Assembly: GCA_963804995.1 (NCBI GenBank)
Contig: CAWDSK010000003.1
Location: 1-64,000, forward strand
Length of the DNA stretch: 64,000 bases
Direction: 5' to 3'
DNA from: an uncultured Acidobacteriota bacterium
GTDB taxonomy: Bacteria; Acidobacteriota; Terriglobia; UBA7540
Shown: positions 42,827 to 47,192 of the stretch, piece by piece
Layout: each line of letters opens with the position of its first letter
Position numbering within the stretch: position 1 is the stretch's first letter
The notes under the pieces: model-generated
Databases searched by the model: none
Told to the model about the DNA's origin: nothing
What the model saw: only the letters and a program-made list of their open reading frames with translations
Made by a program: the position numbers and the translations under genes

Positions 42827-42936
42827 GGTAGTGTCTCAGTTTGCTTGTTTTGTGGCGGCGGTCTCTGACCACCGGCTTTTGATTCAATGAATTCCGGCGG
42901 TCAGAGACCGCCGCTACAGCAAACTGAGACACCACT
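42827..42936. mobile_element. MITE (copy 2) carrying a REP doublet, 8-bp target duplication
   Basis: TIR GGTAGTGTCTCAGTTTGCT / AGCAAACTGAGACACCACT (17/19); GCGTGTTT at 42819-42826 and 42937-42944. Confidence 0.85.
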
Positions 42937-43807: not shown

Positions 43808-44869
43808 TCAAGACGCCACGGCCCGGCGCGGCACGCCGACCACTTCGCTCAGAACCTGAAGTGCGCGCTCGCAGCCGGCGCGATCCACATCCAGGTGAGT
43901 GACCATGCGCATCCTTTGTGGGCTCTGGCCATTGGCGAGCACGCCCTGCGCTTTCAGGCGCTTGGAAATTTCGGTCGATGTTAGCCCCGTGCCCGTGACA
44001 TCGAAGAACAGGATGTTAGTGACGACCTTGGAGGGATCGATTTTGATCCCGGGAATTTCCGCCAGCCCCTCGGCGAGGAACTTGGCGTTGGCGTGGTCGA
44101 TGTGCAGGCGCTTGGGACCTTCTTCGAGCGCGATGAGCCCCGCGGCCGCCAAGACTCCCACTTGCCGCATCCCGCCGCCCAGCATCTTGCGCACGACGCG
44201 CGCTTCCTCGATGAATTCTTTGCTACCCACCAGCATGGAGCCGACCGGTGCGCCCAGTCCTTTGGAAAGACAGAACATCACGGAGTCAAACCCCTTCGAC
44301 AATTCCGCCACGGACCGTCCCAGCGTCACGCCGGCGTTAAAGATTCGCGCCCCATCCAGATGCACAGGCAAGCCCGCGGCGTGTCCGCGCGTGACAATGT
44401 TACTGGAAACTTCGAACGGATAGACGGTGCCGCCCGCGTGGTTCGAAGTGTTTTCAATCTCAATCAACCCGGTGCGGGCGCGGTGGTCGTTCCGCCCGCG
44501 AATGTGGGGAGCGATCATATCCCACGTCAGGATCCCGCCTTCCACCTGAATGGTACGCGGCAAGACCCCGGAGAACGCCGCCACCGTCGCCATTTCATAC
44601 TCGTAAATGTGGCAGCGTGCTTCACAAATCACTTCCTGCCCATGACGCGTATGAACCTTGATAGCCGTCTGGTTTCCCATCGTCCCTGACGCCACGTAGA
44701 GGCCTGCCTCCCGCCCGAAGATTTCAGCCGCACGCTCCTGCAGGCGGTTGACGGTGGGATCATCGCGGTAGACATCGTCGCCCACTTCCGCTTCGTACAT
44801 GGCCTTGCGCATCGCGAGCGAAGGTTTTGTAACCGTGTCGCTCCGTAAATCCACAATCGGTGTTGGCAT
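43808..44869 (-). CDS. ltaE: Low-specificity L-threonine aldolase
   Basis: DLRSDTVT, SGTMGNQ, HLDGARIFNA, CLSKGLGAPVGS. Confidence 0.95.
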   Translation of the reverse strand: MPTPIVDLRSDTVTKPSLAMRKAMYEAEVGDDVYRDDPTVNRLQERAAEIFGREAGLYVASGTMGNQTAIKVHTRHGQEVICEARCHIYEYEMATVAAFSGVLPRTIQVEGGILTWDMIAPHIRGRNDHRARTGLIEIENTSNHAGGTVYPFEVSSNIVTRGHAAGLPVHLDGARIFNAGVTLGRSVAELSKGFDSVMFCLSKGLGAPVGSMLVGSKEFIEEARVVRKMLGGGMRQVGVLAAAGLIALEEGPKRLHIDHANAKFLAEGLAEIPGIKIDPSKVVTNILFFDVTGTGLTSTEISKRLKAQGVLANGQSPQRMRMVTHLDVDRAGCERALQVLSEVVGVPRRAVAS

Positions 44870-45031
44870 ATTTTTTCACTCCAGTAAGCATGAAATCCGA
44901 CCCATTATACCGGGTGCCGGGTGGTGATTCAATTTGCGCCGGTCTTACGCCACTTTTTGGCGAAATAATCTCAGGGCGGTCAAAACTAGCGAGCGATCCC
45001 AGTGTTTGATGGGCTTCGCCCCACCGCTGTG

Positions 45032-45116
45032 CGGAAGGGCTCGGCCCTTCCGGGGCCGAACCCAGATTTTCTCCTTCCTTCGCGCCGCCTGGAAGGGTAT
45101 CCCTTCCAGGCGGCGC
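45032..45116. repeat. Two related palindromes with GGAAGGG/CCCTTCC core
   Basis: CGGAAGGGC-TCG-GCCCTTCCG and perfect 16-bp arms GCGCCGCCTGGAAGGG-TAT-CCCTTCCAGGCGGCGC. Confidence 0.8.
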
Positions 45117-45177
45117 AGATGAGGTTTATGGTTTACCTCAGCAACGAAAAGGCGCAGAAGCTGTGAAAATATCCCGT

Positions 45178-46003
45178 TGTAGCGGCGGTCTCCGACGGCC
45201 GGCTTTGAGAATCAGCCAATTCGGCGGTCATAGACCGCCGCTAGTGTGCCTGAGAGCGCACACGACCGGAGAGGTGAAAGTCCTCTCCAAGTAGACGTAA
45301 CTTGTAACCAACTGCAACTGCGTCGTGGTGACAGGGGGTGGGGAGCAGCAGGAGGTGAACGGCCAGTCCGTACGATAAGAAACTCGATTCGGCCGGTGAG
45401 GCGTGGCGAGCCTGCTAGCGAATGGCGAAGCCCCGAGTTCCCATAGGGAAGCAATCTTGGTTCGATCCGCCGACAGGTAACGTGCCTTGGCGAGACGGAG
45501 CGCACGCAGGTGGTTGGAGACGGAATGGTCGGAAGGTCGGGTGCGTGAATCAGGGAGACCTGTTCGCGTGGAGCCGAAGGGGTGGCCGCTGGGAAGAGCC
45601 CGAGCACTGCCAGGACGGCGCGAGCAGGAGTCAGAGCGTCCATAAGAGCGACGAAGGGCCGTAATGGGTCTGGAGCGAAGGGACGCAGGAAGGTGGATGA
45701 GGAACTTCGGAGGAACGGGGATACCCCCACGGCCAAGTGCCTTCGGGCTAAACCGCACGTGGGCTCGACTCGCCATCGCTGGAGCCGAGCACCTGAACCT
45801 TGGGAGTTCATCATAGTGGTGGCCCTCTGCGGAGGGCGCGGCTTCTCGCCGATCCTCCGGTGCCTTCTCCTGGGCCTCGGTTGGACCGACATCACTCCTC
45901 TTCGAGGTAAAACCACCGACTGGAGAGCCGGATGCGGGAGATCCGCCTGTCCGGTTCGGAGGGAGGGGGGACCGAACTCAATCGGTTCTCCCTACCCCTA
46001 TCA
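45178..46003. repeat. REP doublet (TGTAGCGGCGGTCT...AGACCGCCGCTA|CA) split by a group II intron
   Basis: Removing 45244-46001 restores AGACCGCCGCTACA, identical to the right arm of the REP at 42851-42918. Confidence 0.85.
45244..46001 (+). ncRNA. Group II intron without an intact RT ORF (758 nt)
   Basis: 5' GTGTG; domain V GAGCCGGATGCGGGAGATCCGCCTGTCCGGTTC (45925-45957, AGC triad); domain VI hairpin with bulged A; 3' end CCCTAT. Confidence 0.92.
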
Positions 46004-46010
46004 ACACCAA

Positions 46011-47192
46011 TCAAACTGTAACAAACTCTTGAAATATCTCGTTTGAAACCAGGCACGAGTGAGGGCATAGGCGCACGCGGTCGCCTTCCCACGCCAGCCA
46101 TCCCGCCTGTGTCAGAGATTGTATCTTGTCTTCCCATGGTTTGATGCGGCGACCTCCCCAGCGTTCACGCGCCCACGACAGGTCGACGCCTTCGAGCTGT
46201 CGCAACCCCAGGAAGAAGAACTCTTCCACCTGTTCCTCAGGCGCAAGAGTGTGGCAATCCTCGATTGGCGAGTGCGCTCCACCCAAGATGGTCATATAGC
46301 TGCGGGCGTCAACATGATTCGCCCAGCGGCGCGCGCCGTCGAAAGAATGAGCGCCAGCCCCGAAACCGACATAGGGGGCGAGCCGCCAGTATTTTCGATT
46401 ATGGCGGGACTCATAACTGGGCAGTGCGAAGTTTGAAATCTCGTACTGGATGTAGCCCTCCGCGGCGAGGAATTCACGTCCGGACTCATAGGCGTCCACC
46501 ATGAACTGTTCGTCCGGTACTGCCTCGGCGTCATAACGATTTCCCTGGTGGACGACTTCCCTGCCCAGCCGGCTCTTCTCATCGATCTCAAAAAGGTAAA
46601 GCGAAATATGTTCAGGCCGAAGCCGGGCTGCCGCCTCCAGAGTGCGGTGAAAGGAGGTCGCCGACTGGTGAGGCAGCCCGGCAATCACATCCAGGCTGAG
46701 GTTGGTGATCCCTGCTTCCCGGGCGCGACCCACCAGCTCCACGCTGTCCGCGGCCGAGTGCAACCGTCCGACCGCGCGCAGTTCGCGGTCATCGAACGTC
46801 TGCGCGCCGATGCTCAAGCGGTTCACGCCCAAGCGTCGCAGCGACTGAAGCAGACCCGCCTCCGCCGACCCGGGAGTGGTTTCGAGAGTGAACTCGATGT
46901 CACTACTGAATTCGAGTTGCGCACGCAAGGTCCCCACAACCTGCACCAGACGCTCGGCGCCCAGCAGCGTTGGTGTGCCCCCGCCGAAATAAACCGAGTC
47001 CACAGAAAGTTTCAGGGTTTCGTGTGAAATGGCGCGTTCGGCATAGAAGCCCGCCAAACCTGTGATTTCAGCCTGGAGACTGCGGGTGTACTGATCGAAG
47101 ATGCTACTCCGTTCCACACCTGAGCTGAAATTGCAGAAACTGCACTTCGAGGCACAGAATGGAATCTGGATGTAAACGCCGAGGGTTGCCAT
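46011..47192 (-). CDS. hemW: Radical SAM heme chaperone HemW
   Basis: IPFCASKCSFCNF, YFGGGTP, YEISNFA, HNRKYW. Confidence 0.92.
   Translation of the reverse strand: MATLGVYIQIPFCASKCSFCNFSSGVERSSIFDQYTRSLQAEITGLAGFYAERAISHETLKLSVDSVYFGGGTPTLLGAERLVQVVGTLRAQLEFSSDIEFTLETTPGSAEAGLLQSLRRLGVNRLSIGAQTFDDRELRAVGRLHSAADSVELVGRAREAGITNLSLDVIAGLPHQSATSFHRTLEAAARLRPEHISLYLFEIDEKSRLGREVVHQGNRYDAEAVPDEQFMVDAYESGREFLAAEGYIQYEISNFALPSYESRHNRKYWRLAPYVGFGAGAHSFDGARRWANHVDARSYMTILGGAHSPIEDCHTLAPEEQVEEFFFLGLRQLEGVDLSWARERWGGRRIKPWEDKIQSLTQAGWLAWEGDRVRLCPHSCLVSNEIFQEFVTV

Follow-up and report, generated by a model that had tools for sequence, protein, structure and literature searches.

The group II intron at positions 45244-46001 of the window, i.e. 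the whole 64,000-nucleotide stretch of DNA that we analysed, is probably a non-autonomous member of an endonuclease-less group II lineage whose DNA target is chosen by shape together with a short guide. As our data indicate, what the lineage reads is 5+1 bases and a hairpin lying at a fixed distance from them, and not a REP family. This intron lineage is widespread and still unnamed. From the sequences compared we infer that its members would recognize their hairpins, splice and be mobile.

The preliminary description had placed a 758-nt group II intron here, and its boundaries are right. The ORF-less intron lies on the + strand, begins with GTGTG at 45244 and ends with AT at 46001; its 3' end (45923-46001) matches the Rfam Intron_gpII model with 52.6 bits, and a second copy in the genome ends identically, aligning to precisely intron positions 1-758 with the sequences diverging beyond both ends. 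All the features by which group II introns are recognized were found, i.e. a GUGYG start, an AY end, the six-domain fold, a catalytic domain V and a bulged A in domain VI. Domain I (45244-45554) was drawn from a consensus fold of 39 relatives with compensatory pairs. In this fold the d3 stem-loop comes directly after the Id stem, and the 5' side is without the EBS2-bearing subdomain. Domains II and III (45559-45686) follow from the same kind of fold, and the gamma base of J2/3 is an A at 45633 opposite the last base T, as in 53 of 54 checked family members. Domain IV (about 45690-45920) is a degenerate RT ORF region that keeps the first ~130 nt and the last ~110 nt, the middle being deleted. 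The sequence and the Rfam match give a domain V of 33 nt (45925-45957, AGC triad at 45926-45928) and domain VI (45960-45999), whose bulged A at 45994, eight bases before the intron end, is the presumed branch point.

The guide EBS1, UAGCG at 45416-45420, lies in the d3 loop (45405-45432) and was identified by covariation with the target. The conserved C45415 directly 5' of it holds the delta position, a label given by analogy. G45427 is our candidate for EBS3, also placed by analogy; it is invariant, and hence covariation with the +1 exon base cannot appear. The conserved Ic pair 45325/45334 is broken in the window copy and intact in the second genomic copy, and the window copy is probably dormant. 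A sequence scan found no promoter-like site on the + strand upstream of the intron. When expression and splicing were looked for, every run covered less than half of the stretch (best share 0.22), and four runs gave only contigs of relatives, none of them crossing the joint 45243-46002.

The insertion point lies inside the tag of a GTAG-type REP doublet, between CTA and C. The left REP unit (45179-45201, + strand), recognized by its sequence and by its family genome-wide, has the GTAG tag, an 8-bp stem with one mismatch and a 3-nt loop, and is followed by a 20-nt spacer (45202-45221) that recurs at G000:C2:235097-235162 (G000 being the window's genome). The right unit, the target hairpin (45222-45240, + strand; 8-bp stem, 3-nt loop), stops 3 nt short of the intron and is followed by CTA|C, the complement of the GTAG tag. 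The IBS1, CGCTA at 45239-45243 (+ strand), shares two bases with the stem end and supplies CTA of the tag; the 3' exon starts with CAAC (46002-46005, + strand), i.e. the last C of the tag and the end of the inverted repeat. Excising the intron in silico restores a perfect 16-bp inverted repeat (45176-45191 versus 45232-45243 plus 46002-46005), which bears out the earlier claim that the right arm of the doublet is interrupted. The sister doublet at 42850-42918, which had been offered as nearly the same in arms and spacer, is real and intron-free, but it is 83% identical to the empty site over 70 nt and its spacer is no more than similar. With 94% identity, the doublet at G000:C2:235097-235162 on another contig is the closest sister.

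These repeats are a real class, since the genome has 1135 GTAG hairpins versus 158 for GTAC, a control tag of similar frequency; 36 of the 1135 are perfect-stem units of this doublet's REP type. The features given for GTAG-type REPs in PMC3733652 (a GTAG tag, a short palindrome, multiple copies, intergenic location, dimers) are all seen here. A 1.8-kb DDE-transposase element (L240, G000:C2:235080-236980) has 10 copies in the genome, several of which interrupt the REP family described here, including the closest sister doublet.

Both neighbouring genes are on the - strand, and the intron is antisense to both. The stop of hemW (radical SAM heme chaperone, 46011-47192) is 9 nt from the intron end, and a PLP-dependent threonine-aldolase-like gene (43808-44869) is on the other flank. 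The latter has a sigma-70-like promoter at 44904-44932 on the - strand (10/12 matches, 0.1 expected in shuffles). Outside the intron there are also a perfect 16-bp stem with a 3-nt loop at 45082-45116, 60 nt before the REP doublet, and more palindromes at about 45016-45062.

The insertion has a counterpart in the second ORF-less copy, which is 764 nt long and 98.7% identical (four substitutions and a 6-nt indel) and interrupts another GTAG REP, again between CTA and C and likewise antisense to both adjoining genes. Overall, two of the 875 sites with matching sequence and hairpin geometry in the genome are occupied. We found two RT-bearing relatives in the genome, both damaged: one has an ORF with an internal deletion, and the other has lost both intron ends and carries the catalytic motif YADN. 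No intact cognate RT was found in the assembly, which is 92% complete.

The same genome encodes a second, unrelated intron (e.g. G000:C2:245871-247783) of 1913 nt, class E-like and with an intact RT. Of its 39 copies 38 are full-length, and the remaining one is truncated where a contig ends. This intron is always inserted at the same position within another REP hairpin, the hairpin pattern being seen in 34 of 35 copies checked, and 31 of the 39 copies lie on the G-rich strand. With this intron also in REP hairpins, two intron lineages have adopted REPs in one genome. Three further introns were observed: a class F g3-like family (G000:C1:97423-99342; 1920 nt, 3 copies) outside REPs, a g2-like family (G000:C4:160300-162400) comprising one fragment and 6 full copies, two of which form a tandem, and a class C intron at G000:C6:668586 that seems to lack an ORF.

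The intron had earlier been suggested to move along with the REP; in the model considered here it would be a passenger of a REP doublet mobilised by a RAYT transposase. The genome does have 14 Y1 transposase matches, and 7 of them have other GTAG hairpins nearby; yet none of the 14 in this 92% complete assembly adjoins a unit of this doublet's REP type. The two genomic copies of the intron occupy REPs that differ from each other, the GTAG tag, which an E. coli RAYT cleaves (PMC3733652), is broken up by the insertion, no identical REP-plus-intron units were seen at different loci, and among 35 copies of the class E-like intron 0 pairs share both flanks. Joint movement is thus not supported, and we give the passenger model hardly any credence.

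Among 101 related genomes, 40 gave a match to the intron DNA, in many cases at domain V only; this tally takes in an unpublished genome that none of our claims depends on. Four other genomes of the genus contain full-length ORF-less copies (759-779 nt), and seven contain RT-bearing copies of 1.9 kb. The ORF-less copies belong to several species, with 76-80% identity, and are multicopy at distinct sites with different guides. In four genomes their domain IV still shows colinear traces of the two ORF ends. This points to a single old deletion followed by mobility in trans; the RNA tree does not place the ORF-less copies as one clade, and a single origin is unproven. An intact RT from one relative in the genus has the RT and maturase domains and no endonuclease. 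The closest solved structures to the RT of this clade are IIC proteins, with 208.7 and 206.2 bits versus about 143 for IIA/IIB. A structure predicted for the RT from a single sequence had a mean pLDDT of 45 and was left unused.

We collected 132 loci (52 + 80), the 80 being the best of 428 matching stretches in a search with the intact RT. These best 80 of 428 include members of Acidobacteriota, Planctomycetota, Pseudomonadota, Actinomycetota, Nitrospirota, Verrucomicrobiota, Thermodesulfobacteriota and others. Loci were kept if the GUGYG start could be mapped and 60 nt of exon were available, giving 101 sites, 97 of them distinct; left out were loci without a mapped 5' end, L074 and L075 (altered 5' ends), L087 (short), L063 (doubtful membership) and L058 (unpublished). 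The intron starts were set by a profile or BLAST match plus GUGYG, and those of L045 and L073 were shifted two bases by hand. Since the loci were gathered by RT or intron similarity and the starts were set in this way, the target had no role in the sampling. The 97 sites are not independent, as they fall into 41 intron clusters at 90%. One clade member, L080, is 4.6 kb long and probably contains a nested element. The betaproteobacterial members L171, L213 and L239 start with GTACG rather than GUGYG.

The five-base guide is strongly supported by covariation. EBS1 pairs with exon positions -1 to -5 in 89, 83, 88, 83 and 84 of the 91 aligned sites, respectively, and position -6 pairs in 5 of the 91, a sample in which the partial rows L088 and L089 are counted although they are misaligned. 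EBS1 occurs in 39 variants, and the 51 distinct EBS1-target combinations form 184 of 204 pairs versus 93+-7 in 10000 permutations. Pairing is poor at L042, L078 and L163. Among L045, L073 and L077, the guides and targets of two introns appear to be swapped at -2 (AGUGC on GCAGT, ACUGC on GCACT), each with one mismatch.

We scanned 330 intron columns against 30 exon positions over the 41 clusters and found that only the five EBS1 pairs exceed z 5, the next being 3.1. The scan thus gave no EBS2, i.e. no covarying pair past -5. Two candidate contacts were rejected. A stretch at intron positions about 151-162 scored 4.14 with its own exon and 4.17 with others, and is a stem strand (z 8.0). For exon position -12, A is found in 19 of 20 CGCTA sites but in 44 of 97 across the clade, and the best intron column reached z 3.0.

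These data bear on ordinary IIB-type retrohoming, in which the REP sequence would be read by EBS1 and an overlooked EBS2 with the hairpin being incidental. The 3' end and domain V do resemble those of classes E and F, which show an apparent EBS2 (PMC3753933), and the 20 CGCTA sites show a base bias at positions -7, -8 and -12. However, there is no covariation past -5, the sole EBS2 candidate is the stem strand with no preference for its own exon, and one intron uses stems of unlike sequence (L092-L096, L112). We consider this explanation very unlikely.

The hairpin itself is short and GC-rich and sits at a fixed distance from the insertion point. At 83 of the 97 distinct sites 2-7 nt separate the stem end from the intron, and at 96 sites 0-8 nt do so, whereas a stem end at 2-7 nt is found at 164 of 1673 upstream control positions and in 217 of 1940 shuffles (about 10%). 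Between the end of the loop and the insertion point lie 10-12 nt at 88 of 97 sites, and the strict geometry is kept at 92 sites and missed at 5. The stem is 5-9 bp long at most sites and abuts or overlaps IBS1 with no spacer. The +1 exon base is C or T at 71 of 74 sites. TTT near the junction was found in just 4 of 97 sites, hence these targets are not U-tract terminators.

REP-type hairpins stand at both genomic copies and at all 20 family sites sharing this IBS1, with 14 different stem sequences among the 20. As a background, 497 of 2177 intergenic CGCTA(C/T) in the genome have such a hairpin, i.e. 23% versus 8% in coding DNA, by crude gene calls in one genome. A looser process could be imagined, i.e. 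insertion at any 5+1 match in single-stranded DNA with selection leaving the harmless intergenic copies, in regions where many matches come from REPs. Just six bases pair, REPs are abundant, and the enrichment of hairpins in intergenic matches would favour such a process. But 77% of the intergenic matches, on this crude one-genome background, have no hairpin, as compared with a hairpin at 20/20 matching sites and 92/97 overall, and the fixed loop distance is not expected from selection alone. We regard loose insertion as unlikely.

Sites elsewhere in the clade suggest that shape counts more than REP identity. Two basal members appear from their flanking sequences to sit on other hairpins: L132 (Marinimicrobium; L132:500-580) would lie behind a hairpin inside an attC-like site that belongs to a cassette array, and L171 at the end of a predicted three-recombinase element. 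L151 appears to lie inside domain VI of a class C intron. The ligated junction contains CTAC at 27 of 73 sites, so tags other than CTAC are also used. In three other hosts we counted 229, 43 and, as exact copies, only 2 empty target repeats, the target being multicopy in two of the three. The part of the preliminary description that stands is therefore the use of dispersed REP-type hairpins as landing sites, with the refinement that hairpin and bases are read and not the REP family as such. REPs may be safe and renewable landing sites. As side observations, L132 would be a non-IIC intron at an attC-like site, and on pBN3 introns of the L171, L213 and L239 type lie at either side of the three-recombinase element, inverted with respect to each other.

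We propose that the target hairpin would fold in single-stranded DNA, by analogy with IIC introns (PMC10190682), and that the intron-RT complex would bind it as a substitute for the EBS2-IBS2 helix. Reverse splicing of the lariat would then take place between CTA and C, and the inserted intron would be copied by an RT acting in trans. EBS1 may have been retuned many times to local tags, with REPs as the most frequent target, since no other short hairpins that have a conserved tag beside the stem are as common. The window copy may have been placed by a cognate RT that has since decayed or is missing from the assembly. For endonuclease-less introns a replication-fork route is expected (PMC4424553). 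Both ORF-less copies in the window's genome are on the C-rich strand, 15 of 20 copies in four other genomes are on the G-rich strand, and no strict sense-after-gene orientation is seen among the copies; the strand evidence for this route is weak.

The RTs of the clade are monophyletic, with support of 100 in FastTree (51 rows) and 100/100 in IQ-TREE (16 rows), and are separate from class C, class E, g1, g2 and g3 in trees that hold no confirmed rows of class A, D, g4, g5 or g6. The class E rows are those that we take to be class E by their motifs, the class C rows were labelled by a CGC-type domain V, and the g1-g3 labels come from Table S2 of PMC3552965. A check for classes A, D and g6 gave no blastn match in the E. 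coli genome collection, and the best-ranked E. coli plasmid RT stood at 38.6%. Class C introns have a short domain V with the CGC triad, as also seen in the class C loci here, and the domain V across our clade is 33 nt with AGC or rarely a variant. It had been argued that AGC by itself excludes IIC. The result is right and the argument is weak: L209, a Marinomonas plasmid intron that appears to be g6-like, has a short IIC-like domain V with the AGC triad and groups with class C, so the triad alone does not decide the class; it is the RT tree that separates the clade.

Class C forms its own clade (100/100), and a sister relation between it and our clade is neither shown nor rejected (p-AU 0.435). 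It is possible, though we hold it only tentatively, that the lineage is a separate class independent of IIC, in which positions -6 to -11, the place expected for IBS2, pair in cis with the other REP arm and thus replace EBS2-IBS2, with a host-tuned five-base guide across phyla and long-lived ORF-less riders. If true, nature would have solved shape-based DNA targeting a second time, and the lineage would represent a living intermediate between the recognition modes of IIC and IIB.

In the literature covered, with most subscription papers outside its scope, we found no non-IIC lineage that targets REPs or short hairpins with a covarying EBS1. The available parts of 10.64898/2026.09.22.753630, PMC12584367 and PMC8632793 contain nothing on such a lineage, and that of PMC3733652 on GTAG-type REPs never mentions introns. 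A DNA stem-loop target has been described as exclusive to IIC introns, and EBS2 was suggested to have evolved by imitating the stem-loop (PMC10190682); only three target specificities, i.e. homing sites, terminators and attC, are listed in PMC4424553. The imitation idea becomes directly testable with a clade that spans many phyla, has an AGC-type ribozyme, lacks EBS2 and targets a hairpin in the place of IBS2. REPs join the recurrent targets of retroelements, and a small ribozyme is on offer whose 5-nt guide has been naturally reprogrammed in at least 39 ways.

Under the reading that we prefer, i.e. an endonuclease-less lineage directed by hairpin shape and a short guide, the element works like a IIC intron, with a tighter geometry, no U-tract and an AGC triad. 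The clade shares with class C the absence of an endonuclease and of EBS2, a short EBS1 plus one 3' exon base, and an upstream DNA hairpin. It differs in its separate RT clade, its AGC triad, its 33-nt domain V and its EBS1 of 5 nt, as compared with 4 in IIC. In the IIC substrate, as described with the E. rectale IIC structure (PMC10190682), a stem of 12 bp is separated by 4 nt from an IBS1 of 4 nt, whereas here a short stem abuts or overlaps IBS1. IIC introns insert after intrinsic terminators or into attC (PMC10190682; PMC4424553); in contrast, our clade rarely has TTT at the junction, has one attC-like site (L132) and lacks strict sense-after-gene orientation. The nearest precedent is the 'Unclassified' types of PMC8919778, the table of which lists the intron at NZ_CP022993 24897..24969 (our L171) as such. 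That paper places the U1, U2 and g6 types near class C and often directly after predicted terminators; the hairpins are read there as terminators, and its available part has no analysis of EBS1, EBS2, geometry or REPs.

Classes E and F (PMC3753933; PMC3552965) resemble the clade in being endonuclease-less, about 1.9 kb long and with an AGC triad and a small ribozyme, but their RTs (for class F, those of g2 and g3) form separate clades and they show apparent EBS2-IBS2 pairing (PMC3753933), of which this clade has none. Hairpins upstream of a few integron IIB introns may aid targeting, as speculated in PMC7923331. The IS elements that target REPs (PMC1525189) likewise use them as recurrent insertion sites, but they are DNA transposases, whereas the element here is an RNA-guided retroelement. 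In the same paper 2 of 9 P. putida group II introns are REP-associated, a low number that its available text leaves unexplained. Finally, as in the ORF-less introns served in trans (PMC4424553), domain IV retains only the ends of the ORF and RT-bearing kin exist in the genus; in contrast to those introns, the ORF-less copies described here are multicopy, at distinct sites, in several species and with differing guides.
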